Shown: in pieces, positions 4,671 through 58,985 of the stretch
Layout of the letters: every line of letters starts with the position of its first letter
Position numbering within the stretch: the first letter of the stretch is position 1
From: Callorhinchus milii
Lineage: Eukaryota
Assembly (NCBI RefSeq): GCF_018977255.1
Contig: NW_024704742.1
Span: 136,526,001-136,590,000, forward strand
Reading direction: 5' to 3'
Length of the DNA stretch: 64,000 nt
Notes under the pieces: generated by a model
The model's database searches: none
What the model was told of the DNA's origin: nothing
What the model saw: only the letters and a program-made list of their open reading frames with translations
Program-made: the position numbers and the translations under genes

Positions 4671-5499
4671 TGTCTCAAAGCGCTTCACAGACTATACTGT
4701 AAAGTGAATTGATTGTATATTTTGTGGGCGAAACGCGGCAGCCAATTGCGCACGGCAGGCATGGATTCAGTGACCAAATTATTCTTATTTTCTTAAGGAT
4801 TATTATCCCTAGAAAGTAATTCGCCAATTGACTAACAACCGGTTTCCTATTTACTACCAGGTAGACATTGGTATGTAGAGTAAGGAAACTTGCCCAAGGT
4901 TTTGCCCTGCCCGGGAATCGAACCCAGGTCCTTTCTGCTTGCAAGCTGAGCTCTCTAACCATTACGCTACAGGACTCCAACATATAGCATCCTACACGCA
5001 GGGTAGTGTCTCGGAGTGTTTGATAATATAACATGACACAACAATAATCCTTGCATTTGATATAGTGCCTTATCACGTCTTCGAGAGTCTCAAAGTACTT
5101 CAAAGATTATACTATGAAGTGAATTGACTACATATTTTATGAGCGAAACACCACAGGCCAGTGGCCTACAAACAGCCGTGAATTGAGTGACCAATTTTTT
5201 TTGGAAGGAATGGTAGTGGAGCTGGACGCCAAGCGGGGATGAGGGTTCAAGTGACTGTAGGCACAGTCGAAGAGTCTTAAGGCATGATGCAGACTCCACC
5301 CCCCCCCAACCCCCTTGGCATCGCACTGGAGTGTCAGCCTAGACAGTGAACTCATGGGGCTTGAAACCACAGTACTCTGACTCAAAGGCGAGAGTGCTGC
5401 CAACTTTGCCTGGCGAAGTTACAAACACCACAAACCTTTAACCATCGTATAATAAACTGCTCGAAGTCTAGGATTTTAGTCTCCAAATAGAACCTCACA

Positions 5500-5545
<46 letters not shown>

Positions 5546-5709
5546 ACTCACACTTTCTTGCTCTCTCTCTCTTTCTCTCCCTCTTTCTCTCGCGTTCTTC
5601 ACACACTCTCTGGCTCTCTCTCTCTCACTCTCACACACACACTCGTTCTCTCTTGCTCTGTCTCACATGATGTCTCGATCACTCTCTTTCCCACACTCAC
5701 TCACTCCTT

Positions 5710-6385
5710 GACATCTCAGCTGCATTCGATACCGTTGACCACTCTATCCTCTTCCACCGCCTTCTCCACTCACCACAACCTTCACGGCTTTGTCCATGAC
5801 TGGTTCAGATCCTACCTCTCATACCATATCATACCATACTTCATCTCCACAAACGGTTTCTCTTCTAGCCCCCAGACCGTCTCGTACGGTGTTCCTCAGG
5901 GCTCTGTCCTTGGTCCCCTCCTCTTCGATATCTATATGCTCCCCCTTGGTGATATGATCCACAGACATGGGGTCAACTTCCACATATATGCGGATGATAC
6001 CCAACTCTACCTCTCTGCCTCCACCCTTGACTCCAGGACCACTGCTGTGCTGACAGAATATCTGTCAGACATCAAGTCCTGGATGAGAACTAACTTTCTT
6101 CAGTTGGACGTCAACAAGACCAAAATTACTCATTGACACCCGTCAGTACCTCCACACCTCAGGCGCTGAGAGTATCACCATGCCCCCTCCACCTCGCCCC
6201 TCCCTTGCCTCCTTCAAGGCCCATCTCAAGAACATCCTCTTCAACCTTGCCTTCGATTACTCAGTTTCCCCCAATGCCTTCCATCCTCCCCGATTCTAAC
6301 CCCCAGCTCCAGTACGAAACACCGATTGTCTAGTGCCTCGTCCTCCCGATGTGAAAGGCGCTATACAAATGTCATTTTGTCAACA
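5710..6385 (+). mobile_element. L2 LINE remnant (reverse transcriptase fragment plus 3' tail)
   Basis: GVPQGSVLGPLLFDIYMLPLG...HIYADDTQLYLS. Confidence 0.93.
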
Positions 6386-14045: not shown

Positions 14046-14847
14046 TATCACAATTAACAACAACAAATTGTATTTATGCAGCGTCCTTCATGTCGCAAGG
14101 ACGGTCCAAGCACAGTCGACGGTAATGGTTTTCACGGATGTCCCAAGGCGCTGGACAACGAAGGATTTGGACCCGAGCTGGGGAGTTGGGATCAGGAGGT
14201 TTGGAGGACAGGGAGGGTAGGGGTAGGATGGTGATCGAAGGCACTGTCGAAGAGGAATCTTGAGACGGGCCTTGAAGGAGGTAAGGGAAGGTAAGGGAAT
14301 ATTATTTTTAATGCACAGAACCCCAGATGTGAAGCACTTTACGGCATTTCGAAGACAGGCAGGATTGTTATTATTCTAATCTTTATCTTCATAACGGAGA
14401 GCAGACGGCTGACACTGTGAAGTTCTCCTCGTGTACCCGACCATGCCACGGAACCAGCCGTGAAGTTATGGGCTGGTTGCAAGACTGGTGGGAGGGAGGG
14501 TACTGGGACCCACAGCTGGCAAACAGCTGTCCTGCTTCACCATGACCGTCCCATGAACCAAACTCCCCCCTCACTGTGCTCAAAGATTGCCTTTCTCAAA
14601 CCGTCTCTCTCTCTCTCTCTCTCTCCTTTCACCAAATAGTAATTACCACTGTAATCACTTGGCTGGGGCCAGACCGAGGTGAAGGAGTGAGAGGGGTAAT
14701 GCAGACAGAGTTCAAACTTTCTTTCCCCGACCCCGTCTCTGATTGTCCTTATAATCTGCTCCCTTCCAACCTCCCCCAGTTCTGACGATAGGTCATTGAC
14801 TTGAAAACGTTAACTCATGTTCGTCTTTCCATAGATCCTGCCAAGCT

Positions 14848-15122
14848 CAGCAGTGGCCAATCTTTATTTTTGGTCAACCAGAAAAATGTTTCTCTGTTGA
14901 ATTTTGTTTCACTTATGGTCACGTTGGTACCACTTTTGGGGCATCAAGAAGTGGCCCGTTAATCCCCTGCCCCAGTCCAGGCAAGTCAGCACCAAATCAA
15001 CACCGTGTTTCCAGTAGCTTCCGAGCCACAATACCCACCATGGCGCAGCTATGAATGAAGAAAATCTCAATGAAGAAACAATTATTTGTTTGGCCGACCA
15101 GAAAGGTTGGTGCCCACTGCTG
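14848..15122. mobile_element. hAT-like MITE
   Basis: Imperfect TIRs CAGCAGTGGCCAATCTTT / AAAGGTTGGTGCCCACTGCTG; internal sequence shared with 4491-4670. No clear TSD. Confidence 0.65.
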
Positions 15123-21328: not shown

Positions 21329-21954
21329 ACAATTATCTCCAGAAGAGCAATCGAACAATCGACTAACCACTGGGTTCCTACTTACTGCTAGGTAAACGGA
21401 GGCATGTGGAGTAAGGAAACTTGCCTAAGGTTTTGCCCTGTTAGGGAATCGAACCTGGGTCCTCTCACTTCCGAGGCGAGTGCTCTAACCACTGAGCTAC
21501 AGTATGCTTTACCCACAATGTGCACAGTCAATCCACTTTCCAGTATATACAAAATACAAAATACTCCAGATGTTTGAATCAAAAACAGAAGTTGCTGGGA
21601 ACACTCATCAGATCAGTCAGCATTTATGGAGAAAGTAAGTCAACGTTTCGTCAGCATGTTGGGAGGAAGAGGCTTTTAGGGGCTAACAGAGGGGGGGAGG
21701 CAGGGCAAGGAAGACAAAGGAGAAAATGGGGTAGAGGGCAGGGGATGATGGGTTTTGTTTTGCATCAACACCTCTTTAACCCATCCTCCCCTGTCCTCTA
21801 CCCCATTTTCTCCTTTGGACCCGAAACGTTGACTCACTTTCCTTTCTCCGCTTTACAGTGTATTCTGTGAGGCGCTTTGAGACGTCTCAATGACATGATA
21901 CGACGTGATATCAAATGCAAGGAGTATTCTTATTAATATTATTATTATGAATGG

Positions 21955-22270: not shown

Positions 22271-23772
22271 TTATTTCGTGCCGTATCGTATCTTCAAGAT
22301 GTATCAAAGTGCTTCTGTAAAGTGAATTGACTGTATATTTTGTGGGTGAAATGCAGCAGCCAATTGCACACTGCAGTGTCCCACAAACAGTCGTGGATTG
22401 AGTGACCATATTATTATTTTGTTTGATTTTATTTTGCAAGGGATTACTACCTGTGGAAAGCGATCCGACAATCGACTAACAATCGGATCCCCTACTTACT
22501 GCTGGGTAAACAGAGATGTGTGGAGTAAGGAAAATTACCTAAGGTTTCGTTCTGCCCGGGAATCGAACCCAAGTCCTCTCGTTTGCGAGGTGATCGCGCT
22601 AACCATTGCGCTCGATAAAAGACGCTGTACCATATGCAAGGATTAGCTATTGTGTAAGGGGTATGTAATTGTCAATTATATTGTGTTGCAGTGGAACAGG
22701 ATGAGGCCAGAATGCACTGAGTGCTGTGTGTGTCACATATGCTCTCCAGGGTCAATGCTTTGTTACTTGGCCACTTCCCAGCACATTCTCTCTCCAAATG
22801 TTTCTGTCGCTTCGGTAAGCATTCACGTCACTTAGGTTGGGGGTACATTTGCTGTGAGCCAATTAGCTGTTGTTCAAATTCCCCTCAGCTCTGCGTAATT
22901 TTTAAATGTCAGGCAAAAAGGTCACGCAGACTAAGGCTAGCTGGAAGTCTGTTTCTCAAAAAAACAGAAGGGACCTTTACACCCCCACAATTCCACTTAG
23001 TTTTAGCCTTTCACATCGGTAGAACGTCCCAAGGCGCTGAGCAATCGAGGATCAGGAGCCGAGGGTGAGGGGGGCAGGATTGGGATGAGGGAGGGTAGAG
23101 AGGTAGGAGGGTGGCTGAAAGGACAGTCGAAAAAGAGGGGCTTGAGTCTTGCCTTAAGGAGGCAAGAGAGGGAGCAAAGCAAAGGGATTGTGGACTTCCA
23201 AAGGCTGGGGATAGAGCGGCTAAAAGCCCGGCCACCAATAATAGTAATAATAATAATAATCCTTGCATTTGAAATAACCCTTTTCACGTCTTCTCGACGT
23301 CTCAAAGTGCTTCACAGAATAGACTGTAAAGTGAATTGACTTTGTGGGCGAAACGCGGCAGCCAATTGCGCACAGCAGTGTCCCACAAACAGTCGTGGAT
23401 TGAAGTGACAAATTTATTATTGTTTTTCTTGAGGAATTATTATCAGGCGTGTGGAGTAAGGAAACTTGCCCAAGATTTCACCCTCCCCGGGAATCAAACC
23501 CAGGTCTCTCGCTTGCAAAGCGAGCGCTCTAAGCACTGAGCTACAGGACTCCAATAGTAGGGCGAGTCTGGCGGGAGACATGGAGCAGTCCTCAACCTTA
23601 AACTTTAAGATGGCGCAGAAAATATACAACAACAACAAAATTACATTTGTATAGTGGCTTTCACGTCGGATAAACCTAAGCAGTTATAAAGTCCTGTTGC
23701 GTATTGGTTAAAGCACTTGCCTTGCAAGCGAGAGGACCCAGGTTCAATTCCCAGGCAGGACAAAACCTGAGT

Positions 23773-24390
23773 GCAACAACAACAACAACAAGATTGCATT
23801 TGTATAGCACCTTTCACGTCGGGAGGACATCCCAAGACGCTGGACAGAGTACAGCATTTCAGACCCGAGCTGGGGATAGGGGGGTAAGGGAGGGTAGGGG
23901 AAGGGGGGTGGCAGATGGCATGGTCGAAGAGGAGGGTCCTGAGGCGGGAATTGAAGGAGGTTAAGGAGGGGGCGAGGCGGAGGGACTGGGGGATGGAATT
24001 CCAGAGGTTGGGGGCAGAGTGGCTGAAGGCTCTCCGCCAATGGTGGGACAGGTGGGTCGGGGGGACATGGAGTAGGCCAGAGCCGGCTGAGCAGAGGGAA
24101 CGGGCGGGTTGGTAGGGCGTTAGGAGATCGCAGAGGTAGGGTGGGGCGAGGCCATGGAGGGCTTTGTATGTGAGGATCAGGATCTTGAACTGGATCCTCT
24201 GAAGGATAGGGAGTCAGTGGAGTCGGGCGAGAATGGGGTCGGAGTTTGGTGCGGGAGAGGACACGGGCTGCAGAGTTCTGGATTATCTGCAGCCTGTGGA
24301 GGGGGGAGTTGGGAAGGCCCACAAGCAGAGCGTTTGCATAGTCAAGCCTGGAGGTGATGAAGGCATGAACAAGAGTTTCAGCGGCCTGAG
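23773..24390 (-). mobile_element. L2 3' fragment
   Basis: [18 protein letters not shown] plus (TTG)n tail. Confidence 0.88.
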
Positions 24391-27300
24391 GGGTTTTCCT
24401 TACGTGACACGCCTCGGTTTACTTAGCAGTAAGTAGGAACCCGGTTGTTTGTCGATTGGTAGATCGCTTTCCGGGGGAAATAATCCCTTCAAAAAATAAC
24501 TAAATAAATAATAATAATACTTAGATTCAGTAACTCGGTAACTCAATCCTCAACTGTTCGTAGGACACCGTCGTGCACAATTGGCTGCCTGTTTTGCCCA
24601 CAAAATATATAGTTAATTCAGTTTACAGTATATTCGGTGAAGCGATTTGAGATGTCTCAGCGACGGGATGAGGCACTGTATCAAATGCAAGCATCATTAC
24701 TAATGACAATTTTATACAATAGGTGGAGTCCTGTAGCTCAGTGGTTAAGAGCACTCGCTTTGCATGCGAGAGACCTGGGTTCGATTCCTTACTCTACACG
24801 CCGAATAATAATCCCTCAAGAAAAAAAAGCAATAATAAATTGGTCACTTCAAACCACGACTGTTTGTGGGACACTGCTGTGTGCTACGGCATTTTGCCCA
24901 CAAAAAATACAGTCAATTCACTTTACAGTCTATTCTGTGAAGCGCTTTGAGACATTTAGAAGATGTGAAAAGCGCTATATCAATTGCAAGGATTATTATT
25001 ATTATTATCTTTTAAGGAGTAACTTGCAGAGGAAAAGGGCAGGAAAATAGGACTGATTGGATTGTTCTTTCAAGGATCCAGCACAGACACCATGGGCTAA
25101 ATGCCCTTCTTCTATGCTGTAGAAATTCTAGGATTGTTTAATTTAGTCTAAATGTAGAAGCTGTGTTTTTCCCTCAGTCCTTAAGAAGAGAAGAGAGTTT
25201 CTCCCAGACTCCTGGCAGTCAATTTCTCCCATATAAAATTGGTCGTTCACTTCATGGCTGTTTGTTGGTTACTGCCGTAAGCAAATTGGCTGCTACGGTC
25301 TTCCACAAAATACACACGCTAAGATTTTCTTGGCTTGGAGATTGATGCGATCCACTCTACTGCCTCTGCCACTTCTACCTCCATCCTCCGCCAACCCATC
25401 TCCCTACACATAATAAAAACAAAAGTCACTGGAAACACTCAGCAGGTCAGGCAGCATCTATGGATAGAGGAAAGTGAGTTAATGTTACTTCCTCTCCCCC
25501 TCATCTTCCGCATGAAACCCACAACAACAACTTGCATTTATATAGCGCCATACACATGGGGTGGTGAATCAGAGTGTTACCATCTCCCTTGATCCCCAGA
25601 TTCATTTTGAGCCCATCTTTGCTCAGCTCCCCATCCCCCAGCGGATCGAGTTCAATCCCACCTTCAAATCCCTCCACTATCTCACCTCACCCTATCTCCG
25701 CAACCTCCTTCACCCTTACCAACCCGGCCTCATCTTGCTCTGCCAATCTCGGCCAACTCGACATGCCCCGCTCTATCTTCCACAACAGCCATTTGGGGGT
25801 CCGTTCTCTGGAACTCCATTCCCAGGTCCCTCCAAATTTCTCCCTCCTCTATTTCAATGCACCCCTCAAGACAACGACAACAACAAATTATATTTACGCT
25901 GCGCCTTTCATGTCAGGAGGACATCCCAAGGCACTGGACAGCCAGAGATTTGGACCTGAGCTAAGGGGGTTTGGATCAGGAGGGCCGGAGGGTAGGTTGG
26001 GTGGGGGTAAGAGGGTGACGGAAGGCACGGTTGAGGAGGAAAATCTTGAGACGAGGTAGGCAAGGGAGCGAGCGAGGTGAAGGAACCGTGGGATGGAGTT
26101 CCAAAGAATGGGGGCAGAGAGGCTGAAGGCCTGACCGCAGATGGTGGGACAGGCCAAGCGGGGGATATGGAGCAGGCCAGAGCCTGCTGAACGGAGAGAG
26201 TGGACAGGTCAACATGGAGTTAGCAGGTCAGAGAGGTAGGGAGGTGCAAGACCATAGACATTTCTCTGCGCTTCCGATCATCATTCACCTCCTCACCCCT
26301 CACCCCTGCTCAACACATTCAGCTCTGGAATTACCAGACGCTTTGAGACATCCTCCTGACATGAAAGGCTGCAATATCTATGTGTAAGTCATATTGTAAT
26401 TGTGAATCAGACTGTATCTCTGTGTGCTGACTGTTCTCAGAGTCCACCTAAATTCCCAACAACATTTTCTTCTTGTTATTACACCAAGGATTCCTGGAAG
26501 GATTAAGGGGGGGCGATGTGGGGGGCCCACTCTCAATTTTAACCAATAAGGGGCTGAATAAAATATTACGATTACTAGAAAGAAACACCCCTGCTTCCTG
26601 AAAGCTTGGCTCAGTTTCTCTTTCTTTGTGTTCCGCACATGTTGCCTATTATGGTTTGGGTCGCTCTGCACTATTTTCTCAATGAGCAGTCAGCTCCACT
26701 TGCAGGGGACAGGACTTTCAGGGGAGAGGAATGTTAATTCACTATAATCTCTCTTCCGTTCTCCCTCTCTGGAGACGCCAAATTCTACCTTATCTCAGCC
26801 AGTGAGACCGTTCTTGATTCATTTCTTAAATTCAGCCTTTGTGACAGTCGCTGTGCGCAATTGTCCGCTATGTTTCACATACTCTGCGAAGCGTTATGAG
26901 ACGTCTCAGAGTCATGATATTCCCTGTTTACTTCTCCACTGCAGTAAAGTGCGTACCAATATGCTCCAGTCTACGTAAGGGTCTACCAAGAGTCAGTGAT
27001 AATAATTATAATGATAATCCTTGCATTTGACTGCATTTAATTCTTGCATCTTTGCGACGTCTCAAAGCGCTTCACAGGATAGACTATAAAGTGAATTGAC
27101 TGTATATTTATGGGCGAAACACGACAGCCAATTGCGGACAGCAGTGTCCCACAAACAGTCGTGGATTGAAATGACCAATTTATTATTATTATTTTTCTTG
27201 AGGGATTATTATCAGACGTATGGAGTAAGGAAACTTGCCCAAGTTTTCACCAGCTGGAAATTGCACCCAGGTTTCTCCCTTGCCAGGCGAGGAACCACTG

Positions 27301-28164
27301 AGCTACAGGAACAACAACTTGCAGTTACATAGCATCTCTCATGCAGGGTAGCGGGTCCCAGAGCGCTTGACAGTGAAGGAGCACGACTCCGAGCTGAGGG
27401 GAGAGAGGTTGACCGTAGGCACGGTCGAAGAGGAAGGTTTTCATGCACGATATGAAGTTGGGGAAGGCAGGAGCAAGGCAGAGGGATAGAGGAAATGTAT
27501 TCCAGAATTTCGGGTCGTAGTGGCTGAAAGTACGGCCACCGATGGTGGAACAGAGGACAAAAAGGACTTGCGGAAGGCCGGAGACAGTCGTGTGGAGGCA
27601 GTGGGCTGCGGGTTGGGGGATAAGCAGGTCAGAGAGGTAAGGAGGCGCTAGGGATTTGAAAACGAGTGTGAGGATCTTGAAATCGATCCGTTCGGTGACA
27701 GGGAGCCGGTGGAACCTGGCTAGTACTGGTGCGATGGGGGTAGGGAGTATTGTTCAGCTTTTCCTATATACACAGCTTTGATATATATATAATATATAAC
27801 TTGTGTTGTGTCAGCCTTGCTCAGTTCATAACACCCTGTTATCAACCACTGCTTCTGTTAAGCCAAATATTCTTTGTGCTCTGAGTAAATAAACACTTTC
27901 AGGCATCTGTCCTAAATTTGCCCTTCACACACTAAACGTATCCCCTTTTGTCATTGTCATTGGGTTTACTTTCTTTATCCATCAGCCATCAGTTTTTCTA
28001 AGCATTGTTTTTTCAAAGCTGAACTAGTTTATCTAGTTATTTCTCATAGTTTATATACTGCTAATACTGAGGATCTGAGCTGAGCTTCTTGTTAAAGGGT
28101 GAATCAGTATCCTGTATTGACTGCTTCTGTTAACCATTTTCATAATGATTTGGATTTTAAAACA

Positions 28165-28678
28165 CTGGTTGGGCCTCAGCGAGAGACTGTGTCCAGTTCT
28201 GGGCACCACACTTTAGGAAGGATGTCAAGGCATCCTTGGGTGATAAGGAGATTTACCAGGAGAGGCGAGAGACGCTAGGATTATTCTCCTTGGAGTAGAC
28301 AAGGTTAAGAGGAGACTTAATAGAAGTTTTCAAAACGATGAGGGGATTCGATGAACAAGGAGAAACTGTTTCCACTGGCGGGTGGGTCGGTAACCCGAGG
28401 ACACCGATTTAAAATAGTTGTTGAAAGAAACAGACGGGAGGTGAGGAGAACTTTTTTCATGGGATCTGGAACTCATTACCTGAAAGGGTGGTGGAAGCCG
28501 ATTAGATAACAACTTTTGAGAGAGAAGTAGATAATTATTTGGGGAGGACAAATTTGCAGGGCTATGGGGAGAGAACGGGGGAGTGGGATTGATTTGGATA
28601 GCTCTTTTCAAAGAGCCGACACAGACACGATGGGCCGAATGGCCTCCTTCTGTGCTGTATAATTCTATGATTCTATAA
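28165..28678 (+). mobile_element. CR1-type LINE 3' end
   Basis: [23 protein letters not shown]; tail GATGGGCCGAATGGCCTCCTTCTGTGCTGTATAATTCTATGATTCT. Confidence 0.88.
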
Positions 28679-28781
28679 TTCAGGTACAGGAGATGCGTTG
28701 TCAAAATTTTGGTTGTTTTGTAAACAGTGGAAGAGGATTATGGAAGAACGCAGCGAGACAAACAGGGTAGCAGAATGGGCA

Positions 28782-28915
28782 AAACACAAAATACTGCAGA
28801 TGCCGGAATCTGAAACAAAAACATAGAGAGACATGGGAACGCTCAGCAGGTCAGGCAGCATCTATGGAGAAAGGAAAGTGAGTCAACGTTTCGGGTCCAC
28901 GACCCTTCGTCAGAA
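28782..28915 (-). mobile_element. Short Penelope-type repeat carrying a minimal hammerhead ribozyme motif
   Basis: Minus strand CTGACGA-A-GGGTC-GTG-GACCC-GAAACGTT; flanked by the direct repeat CAGAATGGGCA. Related copies at 14778-14845, 21548-21850 and 25415-25485. Confidence 0.7.
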
Positions 28916-29764
28916 TGGGCAGACAGGTGGCAGATGAAGTTTAATGTAAGATAATGCAAAAATTCCCTTGGGCAGGTAAAATAAAGAAGCCGTTGAACCC
29001 AGATCTCTCACTTGCGCGGGCCAAATCCAGCCCGTCGGCCGATTTCATCCCCTCCATTTCATGTGACCCATCAATCCCCTCTATAACCTGTAACTGTTAT
29101 AATAATAATCATTGCATTTGATATAGTACCTTATCACTTCTTCGAGATGTCCCAAAACCCTTCACACAATAAACTGTAAAGTGAATTGATGTGTGTATTT
29201 GGTGGATGAAAGCACACAACAGCATTGCACAAACCGTCGTGGATTGAGTGACCAAATTATTATTATTATTTTTTGAAGGAATTATTACAGCCGGAAAAGT
29301 GGTTCACCGATCGACTAACAACTCAGTTCTTACTTAAACAGAGACGTGTGGAGTAAGGAAACATGCCCAACATTTCAGCCTTCCTGGAATTGAACCCAGG
29401 TCCTCTCGCTTGCAAAGCGACTGCTCTAAGCACTGAGCTGACAGGACTCCACCATGTTATGTTATGCTTCTGGAAGGGAAATACAAAAATATTGCTTATG
29501 CAGCTGCGGACTACGCAGTAGGATAGGGAATCCGACCCTCAGCAGCCAGAAGGTTAGTCCAGCTTGAATAGGAATCAAAGAGGAGTAGAGGATCAAAGAA
29601 ATCTGGGGATTCAGATCCACAATCTCTAAAAGTAGCTGCACAGATAGATAAGGCTATATTTAAAAAAAAGGGTCTTGGGCTTTATATCTAGAGGGGTAGA
29701 ATATAAAAGTGAGAAGATGATGTTTTATTTTTTCAAGGGATTATTATTCGAGGCACCTGCTCTA

Positions 29765-30458
29765 ATCATTATTTCCCCGGCCTATCTCTCAAATGTACCG
29801 AATCAGTGCCCCACCTAGACCTCAGGTTCAACCCACAGCTGTCCTTTGTTCTCCACATCCGATCCCTGACCAGGAATATCTTCTTCCAACTCCGCACATT
29901 GCCTGCCTCCGACCGTACCTTACCCCGGACGTGTTTAGCACCTCCCGACTTTGCAAATGCCCTCTTTGCTGTTCTCCCCAACTCCACCATGCCCAGGATC
30001 CAGCTCATCCAAACCTCCGCTGCCCACATACTCCTCCGTACTAAACTCCGTACCCCCATCTCACCAGTTCTTGCCAGAATCCACTGGCCTCTTATCGCCA
30101 AATGGACCGACTTCAAGATCCTCGCACTCATTTTCAAATCCCTTCGCTCCCTGGCACCTCCCTACCTCTCCGACCTGCTTACCCCAACAACCCACTGCCT
30201 CCCCTCGACTGGCTCCGGCCTTCTGCAAGTCCCTCGTACCCTCCGTTTCACCATTGGTGGCCGCGCTTTCAGCCGCTACGCCCTGAAACTCTGGAACACT
30301 CTTCCTCTATCCCTTCGTCTTGTCCCATCCTTCCCCATTTTCAAGTCGCGCCTGAAGATTTTCCTATTCAACCGTGCCTAAGGTCACCTCCCCCACTGTC
30401 AAGCGCTCTGGGACGCTAGCCTGCATGAGGAGCGTTATATAAATTAGAGTTGTTGTGG
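29765..30458 (+). mobile_element. L2 3' fragment, second lineage (tail CTCTGGGACGCTA.CCTGC.TGAGG.GCG)
   Basis: IQLIQTSAAHIL...IHWP...FKILAL...LWNTLP; related copies at 27310-27760, 36386-36660, 51230-51625 and 61665-62810. Confidence 0.85.
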
Positions 30459-33279
30459 TACACTGCAGGACTTTATGAGTAACCAATGTGGACAGAATGG
30501 GCCAACAGTCTATGTCTATTGGGGTGGGGAGGGTAATTGTGACCATATGCCATCTTGCTGCTCTGGGAATTAGAATGTACAGCAACGCATTCTGTTACGT
30601 CTACTCTCGTGACCGCATGATCTGCCTGCGTTGAATCCCACAAGTATAGCTCATAGCTCAGTCCCTTAGCAGAAGCATTTGTACAAAATATGTGTTGGGA
30701 CATGGCCAAAGCAACAAAGCATTGACCCTGGGCAACACATTTGATGCAGCGCCTTATCATTTCTTCAGGGCGTCTCACAGAATATGCCGGATATTTTGTG
30801 GGCGAAACACGGCAGACAATTCTCGTGGATTGAGTAACCCAAATTTTTTTNCGTTAAAATATTCTTGGAAGGGATTATTACTCCCGGGAAAGCGATCTGC
30901 TAATTGACTAACAACCGGGTTCCAACTTGCTGCTGGGTAAATAGAGGCGTGCGGAGTAAGGAAACTTGCCCAAGGTTTTGTCCTGCCCGGGAATCGAACC
31001 CGTGTCCTCTTGTATAGCAAGGCGAGTAGCTGATATGCTACAGGACTCCACAAAGTACAGAGCGCTTTCCCAATCTTCCCTTCCAGTGCCAAAATATGGA
31101 AACAATAAAGCTGTTGTTTGCAGGCACAAACACACGCACAAATAATACAGCCCCCAACACGGAAAGTATTAACATTAGTTAACATCTACTTCTCCTACAT
31201 TACCTGTCTCTATTTGTCTCCCTCTCTTTCTCGCTCTCCCTCTCTCTCATGCTCTCACTTGCTCTCTTACAAAGAACTTACCTCTGTGTAAAAAAAAGTA
31301 CTTTCTGGCGATTGCCCTGAAATTGCCCTTTGCAACTATAAACCTATGGCTTCTTCTTCTGCTGACTCGATGCATCTGAACATATTGTTCTTAAATTGCT
31401 TTCTCAATCCCATTTGAAATCTTATCTAACTCTGTAAGGTGCCCCATGGCGACAACTCTTTTCATACTTATCTAATCGTTGCTCATTGCTCACCCCACTG
31501 ACACTTTCTTTGTTGGCCAGACAAGTGTCTCACACATGTGGAAACCCCTCACCGTGCTCAATGCCAATAATAATGATAATAATCCTTGCGTTTGAAATAG
31601 CGTCTTATCATCTCTTCGAAACGTTTCAAAACGCTTCACAGATTATCCTATTAAGGGAATTGACTGTATATTTTGTGGGCGAAACGCAGCAGCCAATTAT
31701 GCACGGCAGTGTCCCACAAACAGTCGTGGATTGAGTGACCAAATTATTTATTTCTTGAAGGGATTATTACCCCCGGAAAAGTGGTCTGCCAATTGACTGC
31801 AGCTAGGTAAACAGAGACATGTGGGGTAAGGAAACCTGCCTAATGTTTCACCCTGCCTGGGAATCGAACCCAGGTTAGCATGTGAATGGGATTACCAAAG
31901 CCACCTTCAAAGTCCTTCAGCAACAGCAATCCTGTAGCTCAGCAGTTAGAGCACTTGCCTCGCAGCGAGAGGCCTGGGTTCGATTCCTGGGCAGAGCGAA
32001 ACGTTGGGCACGTTCCCTTACTCCACACGCCTCTGTTTACTTAGCAGTAAGTAGGAACCCAGTTGTTAGTCGATTGCTTTTCTGGGGGTAATAATTCCTT
32101 AAATTTTTTTTAAATGTGATCCCCTTTCTTACATTTCTCCTTCTACTTGGCTTGGTTACCGGTGTTTTCCGAGCATTTTCAGTGGCTTTGAGCTCACGGC
32201 CCAGGCTGATGCTCCAGGGCAGTGCTGAGGGGAGCATGACATTGTCGGAGGTGCTTTCCTTCGGACGATAAGTTACACCAAGTCTCATCACAGTCCTGTC
32301 AGTTAAGTGGCTTCAGCTGGTTAAACTCCACCAGTACCCTCTGGGGCCCCTCACAGATAAAATCACTTCAATGGTTGCGGGGAATTGCCGTGTACAAATT
32401 TATTGGTCATCTGCAAAATACGCAGTGAGTACACACTACAGTAAATCCAGCAAACCACTTTGAGGCACTATAGCAAATGCAAGGATCATTATTGTTGATG
32501 GGCGCTTTGCGACGTGCTAATGCTAATTATCAAATGCAAGGATTAGTCATCATCGTATTTGATATAGCGCCTTATCATGTTCTCTGGCCCACTGCTGTGA
32601 GCTGGTTACTCGCAATCAATGTACAATCATTCCCCAACAAAACAAAAAACCAGTTTGATGTGCAACACAGGTTTTGCATGAGAGCTCCAATGGGATGCTT
32701 GCCAGCAAATGGTTGGAGTCCTGTAGTGTGGTGGTTTGAGCGCTCGCCTCACAAGCGAGAGGACCTGGGTTCGATTCCCAGGCAGGGCAAAACCTTAGGC
32801 AGGTCTCCTTACTCCACACGCCTCTGTTTAACTAGCAATAAGTAGGAACCCGGTTGTTAGTCAATTGGCGGATCACTTTCCGGGGGTAACAATCTCTTAA
32901 AAAAATATAAATAATAATTTCATTCAATCCACGACTGTTTGTGGGACGCCGTTGTGCAGAATTGGCTGCCGCATTTTGCCCACAAAATATACAGGCAATT
33001 CACTTTACAATATATTCTGTGAAGCGCTTTGAGACATCTCAACAATGTGGAAAGGCGCTGGATCAAACGGAAGGATTATTATTAAGCGCTCTGGGACAAT
33101 ATCCGCTCGAAGGGCGCTATATGAATGCAACTTGTTGTTAATATTCAATGGCAAGTTAAGTGGCTTCAGCTGGTTAAACTCCACCAGTACCCTCTGGGGC
33201 CCCCAAGCCTTAGCTCTTGCCAACCCTTGCTTAATACTCTCCAGATTTAGATAAATATGGCATATCCCCCTGGGGAGAG

Positions 33280-38400: not shown

Positions 38401-41400
38401 CCCCCCACACAAGCACTCTTCATACCCACACAAAAAAAAATTCGGAATCACAAGCACCGCACGCACACACAATTTCTCTCATCCCCCACCTCCCCCGAAC
38501 CCGCACATAATTCTGGTTACGTACATTTTGATTACCAACTGTTTGCCGTCACGAGTGGTGCCGTGGAATCTGACGGAGAGTTTGGGTCTTGGGTCAGACA
38601 GGGGGGCCGAGCCGAAGGGGTGCATTTTCAGCTGGTAATGATACACTGATAGAGAGAGAGGGAGAGAGTTAAGAGGCACAGCAACAACAACAACGTATAT
38701 TTACACAGCAGCTTTCACGTCGGGAGGACGTCCCAAGGCGCTGGACAGTCAGAGATTTGGACCCGAGCTGAGGGTTGGGAGTAGGAGGGATGGAGGGCAG
38801 AGAGGGTTGAAGGATACAGTCAAAGAGGAGGGTCTTGAGATGTGCTTGGAAAGAACCAAGGAGGGAGCGAGGTGAAGGGGATGGGGATGGAGTTCCAAAG
38901 CTGATGGCCTGACCGCCGATGGTGGAGCAGGATGGAGCTCACTGAGTGGAGGGCACGGATAGAGTTAGGGGCGAGAGCATTAGCTGCAGCCTGAGCCAGA
39001 CATTACCTCTGAAGGGCATGTCAGCCCTGGTCTTCAGGTACATGGGTGCCTTGGGTTTGTTGCGGACGCGGTTGACGTTGTAGCCCAGCTTGTTGCAGCG
39101 GTTCTTTCGGCAGCTCAGACACAGGCCCTTCTCAAAGGTGTCGGTGTCTGAGCAGCGATACGCCAGGCTGGTCTTGTCCTGGTTCAGCAGAGAGTCGACA
39201 AACAGCTTGACCGAACGCACATGCTCACAATGCACCACATCCCACAGCTCTGCCGCCATGCACGAGAGAGAGAGAGAGAAAATTCCAGTGAGTCCCAGCC
39301 TTAACTGTCATTTATTTCAATGGGTTAATCAACCACAGCCAATACAGATCTGTTAAAGGCAAATCATAGAATAATACAGCACAGATGGAGGCCATTTGGT
39401 CCATTGTGCCTGTGCCAGGTCTTCGAAAGAGCTACCAACTGGCCCCACTCCACCACTCTTACCCTATAGACTTAATCCATCTACACAACATCAACCCACT
39501 CAATCAAGTTTATTAGTCATTTGAGGCCAAAGGGCCGATTGGCTTCCATCTGTGCTGTAATATTCTATAAATTTACCTTTAACAGATTGCCGTGTTGGCA
39601 GTGATTGATTAACCCATTAACCGAGGCCTCCTACTGTACTGTAAGATTCTATTATTCATCATCCTCCCATTCCCGGCCCCCGCCCCAGTGTTGTGAAGAG
39701 CCCGTTGTAGCGACAAGATAAATATTTGCTGGCAACGAAGAACGCTGACCAATATTTCACGTGTCCCCCCACACACTGAAACTCCCACTTCCCCCAACCT
39801 AACTCCTGCTGTGGGACACTTCAGTGCACACTTGGCTACCACGTTTCACCAACGAAATACACAGTCAATTCACTTTACAGTAGATTCCGTGAAGCGCTTT
39901 GAGACGTCTCGAAGACATGATGAGGCGCTGTATCAGATGCAAGGATTATTATTGTTATTATAATCTGAAGCACTTTGAGACGTCATTATTACTCATAAAA
40001 TTAACAGAAGTACTCACGCCCGAAGGAGATGGATTTCAGGACGTCCTGCAGACCACACCCGGGCTGGTAGCCCCCACCGTTGGGGTAAACGTCCACGTGG
40101 CCCACGGCCTCCTGGATGCCAATACTGACCCCCAGGGCGTTCTGCGAGAACGTGTGCAGGACGTCGACGAAGTCCGCGTCGTCAGGTGACAGGCGATTAT
40201 CTTCCGCAACCCCCTCAAACATGGGCCCAGCTGGGTCCAGCCCTGGAGAGAGAGAGAGAGGAAGAGTGATCAGTCGGATGCCTGACCCACAAGGAAACCC
40301 ATCGTCGTAAACGTCACCCACATATGCAAATTCTGAAATGGCAGCTCTCCCTGGAAAGACACACCTTGCTTACCTAATTTGGGAGAGTATTAGGCAGGTT
40401 GGCCACAGCCCAGCTTTGGCGGTGGAGCGTGTGTTGGATAACTGCTGGAGTCTGACCAGCTAACACTACGTAGCTTGCCACTGATACTGTTTGGCACGCT
40501 TTCCCGCTGCTTGTCTAGCTTGGCCCACCTTTGGAGCTTTGGCTTGCAGGGTTAACAGGAGCTGAGTGGGAAGAATCCCTACCCCCAGTGGCTGGTCTGC
40601 CTTTCCAAGCCCTATTCATGAGCCAGGCCGGGCTAGTGTATATATATATATATATCTCAGCCGTGCCCTGGAATACTGCGGACCTGCATAGCTCAAGAAC
40701 TGGACGATGTAACTGGACATGCTGCTGCCAAACACGTCTTGAAACCAGTTCAGCTCCAAGGAAACCGCACTTACCTTCCCTTCCCCCACTTTACTAATCC
40801 AAGTCCTGATCACACAACCTCCTCAGACTCAGAGGCGAGAGTGCTACCTGGCTGAGCCAGCCTGACACACTGTTATTACAGACTAATGATTATTATTATG
40901 TGATTAAAGTTAAAATCACGCGTTAGAGGTCATTTCTAACTGGTTTTCGGTGAGGAGTCAGCCAGCAATAACACTGCCACGTTACACGTGAATCGATATC
41001 ACTTTTCTTAGTATGTTTGAACTTCCTAAAGCAGTTACTTGGTATTTTGTCAAGCCATCGGAATAGTCTTATTAATGCTCCCAGTTCCACCCATGATTAT
41101 AGAAACTAATTTGTTGATCAATATAGTTCCTAATTTTTCTCTCGTTCATTTATTACGTTGTAATCCCTTGGGATAGCCACAACAATAATGTGTGGACGTA
41201 CAATCTATTTGATTTTTTCTGATAATATTATAGTAACAATGATAATCCTTTTGTATAGCGCCTTATGACATCTTTGAAACGTCTCAAAGGGCATCACAGA
41301 ATATATATTGTGAAGTGGATTGACTGTGTATTTGTGGGCGAAACATGGCAGTTGTCCCACAAACAGTCTCGATTGAGCAACCACATTATTATTTTATATA

Positions 41401-50400: not shown

Positions 50401-53400
50401 CACCATCTGCTGTTTAAAGTGCAAAAGCACAGACTTTAAAGATTTTACTGGGATTATCTATCTGAACTTTTCAGAAAAAACGTCATCTGGCGAGCAGTTC
50501 CTGCGAAAAGTCACCGGTTATGGATGGTGTGTGTGTGTGTGCGTGCGGGGGGGGGGGGGGGGGGGGAGGAGGGGGTGGTGGGATGTGGTTAAGTGAATCT
50601 CCTCATTTCAACTAATTCCAGATCCCTAGAATTGAAAAGATTATAGTTTCCCAACAAAATCTCTGCCGGCTTATTATAGTCACATAAATATGGTCACATG
50701 TATTAAATTACATGCGAGTCAAATTATAACCATCTCCAACACAGGCCAGGAACCGGGCAGGACATTTTTAAAAGTTTCTTTCACAGAAGCATCCCGGTCT
50801 TTGAATAACACACCATATACCCACCCACACCATACACCCAAACACACACCATACACACACCATACATCCACAACGTACACACACACTCACAACATGCACA
50901 CACACACACACAACATACAATATGCACACAACACACAACAGGCACACATAACATGCCCACAAAGCACACACAACATACAACACGCGCGCACAAACACGCG
51001 CGCACAATATACAACACGCGCGCCCACACGCGCGCGCACAACTTACAGCACGCGTGCCCACACAATCGGCCGCAACATACAACAAGCGCGCCTACACATG
51101 CATGCACAACATACAACACGCGCGCCCACATTCACGCACAACATACAACGCGGGCGCCCACACACACACACACACGCGCACAACATACAAAATGTGCGCC
51201 CACACACGCATAACAAACAACACCCACACCAACTTACACTTATGTAGCGGCCTCCATGCTGGGAGGCGTCTCAGAGCGCTTAACGATGGCGGAGCCCAAG
51301 GCTGAGCCAGGCGGAGGGGAAAGGTGACCTGAAGATGGTGAAGGATGGGGCGAGGAGAAGGGGTTGAGGGAGGGTGTTCCAAAGTATCGGGGCGTAGTGG
51401 CCGTCGATGATGGTGCGGAGGATTCAGGGAACGAACCTAGAAGAGCGGAGGCAACGGATACTGCTGTGGGGAGAGAGGAAGTTGGAGAGATGGGGGGACG
51501 GGTGGGGGGATGGCAAGGAATGGAGGGATTTAAACACTACAGTGAGGATCTCGAAGCGGATCTACTCTGTGACAGAAGTCAGTGGAGTTTGGCCAGGACT
51601 GGAGTAGTCGGGGTACAGAGAATGCGGGCTAACACATGCACACCCCCCCATACGCACCACACACACCCCCCCATGCGCACCACACACACCCCCCCATGCG
51701 CACCACACACACCCCCCCATGCGCACCAGACACACCCCCCCATGCGCACCAGACACACCCCCCCATCCGCACCACACACACCCCCCCATCCGCACCACAC
51801 ACACCCCCCATCCGCACCACACACACCCCCCCCATCCGCACCACACACCACCCCCCCATCCGCACCACACACACCCCCCCATCCGCACCACACACACCCC
51901 CCATCCGCACCACACACACCCCCCCATCCGCACCACACACACCCCCCATCCGCACCACACACACCCCCCCATCCGCACCACACACACCCCCCCATCCGCA
52001 CACACACACACCCCCCCCCATCCGCACCACACACACCCCCCCATCCGCACCACACACACCCCCCCATCCGCACCACACACACCCCCCCATCCGCACCACA
52101 CACACCCCCCATCCGCACCACACACACCCCCCCATCCGCACCACACACACCCCCCATCCCCACCACACCCCCCCATCCGCACCACACACACCCCCCATCC
52201 GCACCACACACACCCCCCCATCCGCACCACACACACCCCCCCATCCGCACCACACACACCCCCCCATCCGCACCACACACACCCCCCCATCCGCACCACA
52301 CACACCCCCCATCCGCACCACACACACCCCCCATCCGCACCCACACACACCCCCCCATCCGCACCACACACACCCCCCATCCGCACCACACACACCCCCC
52401 ATCCGCACCACACACACCCCCCCATCCGCACCACACACACCCCCCCATCCGCACCACACACACCCCCCCATCCGCACCACACACACCCCCCCATCCGCAC
52501 CACACACACCCCCCCATCCGCACCACACACACCCCCCATCCGCACCACACACCCCCCATCCGCACCACACACACCCCCCCATCCGCACCACACACACCCC
52601 CCATCCGCACCACACACACCCCCCATCCGCACCACACACACACCCCCATACGCACCACACACACACCCCCCATACGCACCACACACACACCCCCCATACG
52701 CACCACACACACCCCCCATACGCACCACACACACCCCCATACGCACCACACACACCCCCCCATACGCACCACACACACCCCCATACGCACCACACACACC
52801 CCATACGCACCACACACACCCCCATACGCACCACACACACCCCCACACGCACCACACACACCCCCACAACTAAAAACAATAATTAAATTGGTCATTTTCA
52901 ACCTACACATCACACACCCCCCCCACAATATACAGTCAATTCACTTTACAGTGTGTTCTGTGAAGCGCTTTGGGACGTCCTCCCGACGTGAAAAGCGCTA
53001 TATCAAATGCAAGGATTATTATTATTATTATACCACACACTCCCATACAACATACACAAATACACCTCACCCACACACGCCCAACCACGCCACCACCACA
53101 AACAACCATGTACACACACACACACACACAAAACCCTCACATAATTATTTGTTTTGGTCGGCCGGGTCTCCGTCACATGCGGAAACCCATCACCGTACTT
53201 CAGAGTATCCAAACCATATTGAGAATTCCATGCATCCGATCTACACGAGGAAATTCCAGAGATAAACTGTGAAACTTCTGCGATGTTTCAATCTTTCTGG
53301 TGCAATATTAACAGCAACAACCACAATGTACAACCAGATCATTTAAGAGATTAAAGTTAGAACATTTTCTAAAATATCATGATTATCGAATATTATCTCT

Positions 53401-58259: not shown

Positions 58260-58985
58260 CCCTCTGCCTCCTCATCCTCCTGGATCCCTCTGGGCAATGT
58301 CATCCGCAGACATGGGCTAAACTTCCACATGTATGCGGATGACACACAACTCTACTTTTCCTCCTCCAGTACCAACTCCAGGTCTGCTGATGTTTGATCA
58401 GCTCGTCTGACATCAGGGTCTGGATGAATGTAAACTTCCTGCAGCTGGTCAAGACAGAAGCCATACTCCTCGGTCAACAATCTAAACTCCTCAACCTCCC
58501 TGGGCTCTCCCTCAGACTCACTGAGTGTCTGGTTCGACCCCACAGCCGTTCTTCCTCTCCCACATCCTGTCCCTGACCAGGACTGCCTTCTTCCACCTCC
58601 GCCACATTGCCCGCCTCCGACTGTACCTTACACCAAATACAGTCGAAACCTTTGTGCATGGGTTTGCCACCTCCCGCCTGAATTACTCCAACGCACTCCT
58701 CGCTGGTCTCCCCAGCTCCATTTCAAAAAATCCAGCTCATTCGGAACTCTGCCGCCCGCACGCTGACCACAACCAAACTCCGTACCCCCATCCCACCAGT
58801 TCTGGCCCAGGCCCCACTGGCTCCCCATCACCGAACGTAATCGAGTTCAAGAACGTCTGCCCCACCAGTGGAGGTCAAGCTTTAAAACACTACGCCCCGA
58901 AACTCTGGAACACTCTCCCTCAATCCCTCCGCCTTGACCCCCTCTCTCCCCTTTTTCAAGTCCAACCTAAAAAACTTCCTTTTTA
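58260..58985 (+). mobile_element. Degraded L2 RT and 3' fragment
   Basis: IRRHGLNFHMYADDTQLY, SRLNYSNALL. Confidence 0.87.

Follow-up and report, generated by a model that had tools for sequence, protein, structure and literature searches.

A hammerhead-bearing insert in a CR1-type fragment of Callorhinchus milii as the probable stranded end of a Penelope-like element

Introduction

Penelope-like elements (PLEs) have been detected in all vertebrate species of one survey, including the elephant shark, and the pseudo-LTRs (pLTRs) of metazoan PLEs are described as carrying minimal hammerhead ribozymes (min-HHRs) with a consensus of CUGANGAH, a G-C-closed stem II and GAAA-C-G-U-U, together with a short stem I and no helix III (Cervera and De la Pena 2014, PMC4209133). 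According to the same study, solitary min-HHRs are the rule in metazoan genomes, and truncated PLEs are given as their source; two supplementary files of the study were searched for cartilaginous fishes, and none is named there. In D. virilis, an intron has been described as ending at the 5' end of helix I, and the promoter as lying in the pLTR.

The anatomy of PLE insertions has likewise been described. PLEs have been reported to leave target duplications of 8-10 bp and to join the target by microhomology on their 5' side (PMC3846280), and inverted, shorter partners and solo pLTRs are on record as well (PMC3846280, PMC8557442). Tails measure 30-40 bp (PMC8557442) or 31 bp (PMC3846280), and the tail sits between two reverse-transcription start sites (PMC11167929). 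The last of these features comes from work on the Anolis PLE Poseidon (PAc), in which reverse transcription was found to start internally at two sites that bound the tail, downstream of the hammerhead, with uncleaved RNA as the dominant substrate in vitro (Frangieh 2024, PMC11167929). A second group of relatives, the non-LTR retrozymes, comprises non-coding, PLE-related units with a type I hammerhead (Cervera 2020, PMC7229834; Li 2026, bioRxiv 10.64898/2026.07.22.740005).

Both the motif class and the insertion anatomy of the locus described below have been published. With PLE min-HHRs (PMC4209133) it has in common, as far as they are described, the core, the closing of stem II, the GAAA-C-G-U-U without helix III, the solitary state and perhaps the short stem I. 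A search of mostly open literature, outside Repbase and Dfam, returned no publication on this cartilaginous-fish family or on the stem I boundary reported here, and the Li 2026 preprint, in which one chondrichthyan genome was screened, may list the family in its supplements.

The insert and its target site

In the 64,000-nt stretch of Callorhinchus milii DNA that was analysed (the window), a short repeat unit on the minus strand, copy A (28780..28915), interrupts a degenerate CR1-type reverse transcriptase (RT) fragment on the plus strand (28682..28960, consisting of 28682-28781 and 28922-28960). The unit comprises a hammerhead motif, a middle segment and a tail, and probably represents the pLTR end and tail of a PLE. 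The 11-mer CAGAATGGGCA occurs on the plus strand at both 28771-28781 and 28911-28921, and is the sole direct repeat of at least 6 bp between the two junction regions tested around the insert; by comparison, random non-tandem position pairs at equal spacing gave an exact repeat of at least 11 bp in 8 of 3000 cases (38 of 1500 before tandem arrays were excluded). When 140 nt (129 nt plus one copy of the repeat) are excised, a continuous frame results, ...NRVAEWADRWQMKFNV, in which ...NRVAEWA is fused with DRWQMKFNV, and because the host frame is thereby restored the repeat is a real target-site duplication. Both this short duplication and the lack of a poly(A) tail are traits of insertion by endonuclease-bearing (EN+) PLEs.

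The original prediction of a ~130-nt insert that is flanked by a direct repeat and splits a CR1 RT fragment is thus borne out, with two refinements. First, the element-like stretch spans 136 nt, since five nucleotides of the right repeat (TTCTG on the minus strand) and the final two of the left repeat match the element ends as well. The five bases, which lie just upstream of and into the core, are common to the target and the element 5' arm, making the 5' junction one of microhomology and leaving only 4 of the 11 duplicated bases unambiguously non-element; copy D, described below, aligns with the target for a few bases further. Second, the host is a second, degenerate CR1-type piece, distinct from the CR1-type copy with its 3' end at ~28676. 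The name CR1 was given to it from a peptide motif that we presume to be of that type. Read depth over 28909-28959 is at repeat level and consistent with a CR1-type repeat (no named database match), and a CR1 protein search returned two weak, unnamed C-terminal matches to the upstream CR1-type copy (E 0.04 and 0.08), with the split motif outside both.

Copy A lies on the same strand as, and ~8.3 kb beyond the last matched exon of, the endothelial lipase (LIPG) gene (54407 to 37230, minus strand; nine matched exon blocks, residues 1-497 of 501), in which the exon at 40034-40243 encodes 70 aa with 100% identity to the protein that NCBI names endothelial lipase in C. milii. The first lipase intron contains a 23-bp minisatellite (51639-52865, 54 copies, 94% matches). 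Other repeats in the window include a very abundant SINE-type repeat with tRNA-like heads at 29376-29448 (minus strand) and 31935-31990 (plus strand), and LINE-type RT fragments with YADD at 5480-6133 (plus strand; Pfam RVT_1) and near 58332 (plus strand), which by eye are not Penelope-like.

The hammerhead motif

A minimal type I hammerhead motif occupies 28881..28915 on the minus strand and departs nowhere from the min-HHR consensus of metazoan PLEs; the additional base that follows A9, the G10.1-C11.1 pair and the CG/UU ending all conform to it. It opens with a 2-nt 5' arm of stem I (28915-14), followed by CUGACGA (28913-28907) with an extra A (28906), a 5-bp stem II of GGGUC/GACCC with a GUG loop (28905-28893), GAAA (28892-28889) and the palindrome AACGUU (28890-28885), which stands in place of helix III and corresponds to the palindromic 15.2-16.2 followed by UH. 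The predicted cut falls between 28885 and 28884, and the 3' arm of stem I follows (28884-81). Every part that had been proposed for the opening of the minus strand, i.e., the core, stem II and the palindromic AACGUU, was located, and a descriptor built after the 2014 consensus of Cervera and De la Pena matched once in the window, at this very site, and in none of 200 first-order Markov resamples. Stem I had been called weak, and it does retain only two pairs in copy A, in which the 5' arm is replaced by target, compared with four in copy D and 3-5 bp in the consensus. Copy D keeps stem II through a two-sided change of G-C to A-U and a one-sided change of G-C to G-U, and covariation counted on these two copies only amounts to one two-sided change, a value as high in 258 of 500 shuffles.

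Searches that rely on more general models were negative. Rfam gave no hammerhead match at copy A, even at E 5; the lowest-energy fold of copy A was not hammerhead-shaped (z 0.42 and 0.82); and folding of copies A, B and D gave no significant stability. An absent Rfam match and hammerhead fold would be expected, because the motif is without helix III, and equally they lend it no support. In public reads (described below), differences of at least 5% in the ribozyme region are listed only at 28887, 28888 and 28893, all of CpG type, with positions near record ends under-counted; so few differences would be weak evidence of core conservation, and they are also compatible with the neutral decay of dead copies.

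Copy A is itself predicted to be non-cleaving, because it is solitary, without helix III and left with two stem I pairs. Moreover, 31 nt of the copy precede its predicted cut, and 103-105 nt follow it up to the 3' end. As copy A spans its own predicted cut site, self-cleavage would not have set the ends of the copy, and the template would have been an uncleaved or re-joined RNA.

Related copies in the window

Four further fragments of the family were found within the 64 kb. Copy B (21550..21757, minus strand) has the same 3' end as copy A, has stem II deleted and carries ~100 nt of pyrimidine-rich upstream sequence. It forms a head-to-head inverted pair with copy C (21778..21849, plus strand), which has a 40-nt arm (38/40 identical) followed by 34/34 nt identical to copy A, and is ended by another repeat. 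Copy D (14717..14842, plus strand) possesses a hammerhead motif in which stem I measures 4 bp, stem II is variant and GAAA contains an additional A, and its upstream sequence shows a modest likeness to that of copy B, as high in 23 of 1000 shuffles. Finally, copy E (25412..25486, minus strand) has its 5' end within the core, at the palindrome. Accordingly, the ribozyme is preceded by further sequence in three of the five window fragments (B, C and D), and the stem I boundary is the starting point of one of the four insertion events (A; not B/C, D or E). No duplication of at least 7 bp was seen around B/C, D or E, and no tandem repeat was found at the copy A locus in this window.

The copies also differ at their 3' ends. 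Copies A and B end at one and the same base, and copy E ends 34 nt short of it; the segment concerned (28780..28813, minus strand; ~34 nt), found in A and B and not in E, has the size and place of an optional PLE tail, as judged from these three copies only. Two further observations concern copies C and D. The stretch of copy C that is identical to copy A lies at 21816-21849 (plus strand), and its partner B is far more diverged; two events or a conversion are possible. Past a break after the conserved middle, copy D runs into a short inverted family piece (14843-14860, plus strand).

Within the unit, an ATG at 28861 (minus strand) stands right after a pyrimidine tract plus TAG, an acceptor-like context, and opens a frame that in copy A covers 27 codons and reaches the tail end, against 17 codons in E and 14 in B; a second acceptor-like site lies near 28810. 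Searches with this frame identified no PLE protein, one returning no match and another a single match, which was rejected as an unrelated bacterial-type repeat protein. The GIY-YIG family had no match in the 69 window ORFs scanned (of 82 listed). Outside the window, a degenerate hammerhead pattern occurred in no stretch of the metagenome contigs. A 21-nt family motif occurred in 6, 3 and 0 stretches of metagenome, prokaryote-genome and viral contigs, respectively; these were dismissed as chance, since the nine loci are 60-68% GC and match over only 21-34 nt.

Ends and joints in public reads

Contigs of four public runs (of 24 listed; three coded organisms; DNA-type or unlabelled) were compared with positions 28620-29100 at 80% likeness, giving 22,548-30,616 records per run, CR1 parts included. 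In all four runs, the maximum depth over 28773-28915 is 7e5 to 7.5e6, compared with 0-96 on the unique flanks. The insert thus exceeds its flanks by 4-5 orders of magnitude, and while depth is not to be read as copy number, the family of copy A is plainly very large.

Among the six best loose ends per run (1078 further entries exist), none but position 28915 lies on the unit's 5' side, and its records number 378, 370, 914 and 688 in the respective runs. Beyond it, agreement persists for ~3 nt and then stands at 0.38-0.39 over the next 30 letters, with an AT-rich consensus; as benchmarks, the true CR1 3' end gives 0.33-0.37 and internal divergence points at which the family continues give 0.49-0.63. 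In run X5, plurality agreement extends 16 nt beyond 28915 and resembles the upstream sequence of copies B and D. The low agreement indicates that most copies with a loose end at 28915 terminate no more than a few bases from the 5' arm of stem I, with the exact place being forced by copy A's own boundary and the count mixing true ends with longer copies. Several long pieces span 28774-89 to 28915.

Inversions are recorded at the same place. Strand switches that join 28870-83 to 28907-15, close to both arms of stem I, account for seven among the 15 joints listed (136 others exist), and are found in 34 contigs of run X5, 23 of X8, 1 of X1 and 2 of X2. Inverted joints are thus far commoner in X5 and X8 than in X1 and X2, though the family is present in all four runs. 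The coincidence of 5' ends and inversion joints at stem I suggests a discrete RNA or cDNA end. No empty-site joint was seen among the 15 listed, and most runs are without cover at 28705-28738; presence/absence polymorphism is not readable from either. In a separate observation, contigs from other loci join a CR1 3' end (28676-79) directly to the family's tail end (28779-80) or to 28844 in all four runs. Each run has 1-8 such contigs, a hint that the AT-rich tails of CR1 copies have been hit by insertions repeatedly.

Origin of the insert

Copy A, a member of a very abundant family, is probably a dead-on-arrival retro-copy of the terminal module of an EN+ PLE, i.e., the pLTR end plus tail. Two origins had been put forward in the original prediction, namely a non-coding retrozyme- or SINE-like unit mobilised in trans, or an extreme 5' truncation of a Penelope element, and the second is the better supported of the two. 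It is favoured because the upstream sequence in copies B, C and D, the B/C inverted pair and the optional 34-nt tail are all traits that have been described in PLEs (PMC3846280, PMC8557442, PMC11167929). Both the optional tail of 30-40 nt and the inverted, 5'-truncated adjacent copies of EN+ PLEs are present here, the former in A and B versus E and the latter in B/C and in the strand-switch joints. Likeness to truncated EN+ PLE insertions, as described by Arkhipova (2013, PMC3846280) and Craig (2021, PMC8557442), also extends to a similar length of the duplication and to microhomology at the 5' end, and the shortening of the inverted partner, 37 bp in Adineta Pen2a, compares with 32-45 nt between the joint positions here (commonest, 38). 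With PAc, as reported (PMC11167929), the locus would share a reverse-transcription start site ~85-90 nt past the hammerhead cut with a second one a tail-length away, and an uncleaved template; ATT in the target is common to both.

There are also differences. The unit measures 136 nt, whereas the pLTRs of the EN+ PLEs described are ~200 bp long, and a concentration of 5' ends at stem I is absent from those descriptions (PMC3846280, PMC8557442). The ORF of PAc starts inside the ribozyme (PMC11167929), whereas in copy A the ATG follows the ribozyme and is tied to no PLE protein. Points against the reading as a PLE end are that the sharp 5' boundary of the family is unlike random truncation, that the unit is tied to no PLE coding sequence, that the upstream likeness of copies B and D is modest, that the covariation counted on two copies stays within the range of its shuffles and that the joints listed include no empty allele.

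The steps of insertion can be envisaged as follows. An RT/GIY-YIG protein would nick the target DNA, and reverse transcription would start internally on uncleaved RNA, ~103-105 nt past the ribozyme cut; such a start is proposed because the Anolis element initiates in this way in vitro, and what is observed here is where the copies end on the 3' side and that the 34-nt tail is optional. The cDNA would then pass through the whole hammerhead and end at or near the stem I 5' arm, in keeping with a copy that spans the cut site and with family 5' ends that concentrate at this arm. Next, the cDNA end may anneal to the second nicked strand via the 5-nt microhomology, and fill-in would leave the 11-bp duplication, both of which are present at the locus; their order in the process is conjectural. 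In other copies, the cDNA end may instead fold back on the stem I 3' arm, which would account for the head-to-head inverted pairs whose joints are observed.

It is conceivable, although we consider it doubtful, that stem I constitutes a fixed end in the Penelope cycle, independent of cleavage. RNA would start, or cDNA would stop, at its 5' arm; internal initiation at the tail would yield a run-off cDNA of ~135 nt that inserts alone and in very large numbers; and stem I, in its DNA form, would prime the fold-back that makes an inverted pLTR shorter by one ribozyme length. In copy D, the 5' arm stands in the context of a pyrimidine tract and CAG, followed by TT-CUGA, which is compatible with what we take to be an initiator pattern and equally with a splice acceptor. 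Were transcripts to start at the 5' arm of stem I, internal initiation would give rise to the short copies as run-off products. If the proposal is true, the mini-copies would document PLE "strong-stop" products across the genome, and a non-autonomous unit that propagates itself may be among them.

Such a unit, in which a PLE end has become a discrete non-autonomous mini-element, with short masters that have a transcription start of their own at stem I and are copied in trans by the PLE protein, is an unlikely origin here. The agreement beyond the loose ends at 28915 is near that of a true CR1 3' end and below that of internal divergence points, as would suit it, and so would the long pieces that reach from 28774-89 to 28915; however, 28915 is the place imposed by copy A's own end, longer copies are mixed into the count, and only copy A among the four window insertion events begins at the boundary. 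The 5' arm context of copy D fits the presumed initiator pattern. Promoters do occur in PLE pLTRs, and pLTRs can reportedly act in cis for mobilisation in trans (PMC3846280 for the cis action), but long elements that shed short run-off cDNAs would give a fixed end too. A SINE-like unit mobilised in trans may be considered, since stem I is where many 5' ends of the family lie, but the insert has no Pol III-type head (tRNA, 5S or 7SL-like; no Rfam match at E 5), and there is no sign here of short copies giving rise to others.

The retrozyme part of the earlier proposal, by which copy A would be a non-LTR retrozyme monomer copied from self-cleaved, circularised RNA, fares far worse and is very improbable. 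Apart from being non-coding, PLE-related and provided with a type I hammerhead motif, the unit could find a counterpart in reported vertebrate retrozyme families of 51-972 bp with dispersed monomers, which are described as pLTR-derived and include one from a chondrichthyan. However, retrozymes are defined by tandem units, and copy A is not part of a tandem repeat within the window. Its motif is minimal, without helix III, whereas that of non-LTR retrozymes is canonical, and a target duplication also sets it apart (PMC7229834; Li 2026, as described there). Neither end of copy A lies at the cut site, which the copy spans. A circle would also require the two ends to adjoin each other in the family, and they do not, family sequence being found 5' of the core in B, D and the reads.

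Finally, the idea that the hammerhead likeness or the duplication arose by chance inside some other repeat, which could invoke the missing Rfam match, the unfavourable fold and the non-significant covariation on two copies, is scarcely credible and already largely refuted by the descriptor's silence in the resamples, the rarity of such a repeat at random pairs, the exact restoration of the host frame and a second copy in which stem II persists despite two changes, the first two-sided and the other one-sided. The probable origin of copy A thus remains the stranded end of a PLE.

Biological significance

Taken alone, copy A is most likely ordinary genomic debris of a kind already described. Cleavage by PLE hammerheads has been reported to be weak, and to be dispensable for insertion in vitro (PMC4209133, PMC11167929). 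The family as a whole matters a little, because its short copies bear on the role of the PLE hammerhead: a very large set of them, with 5' ends and inversion joints on stem I, offers a cheap test of where the template RNA starts and of how inverted pLTRs originate.
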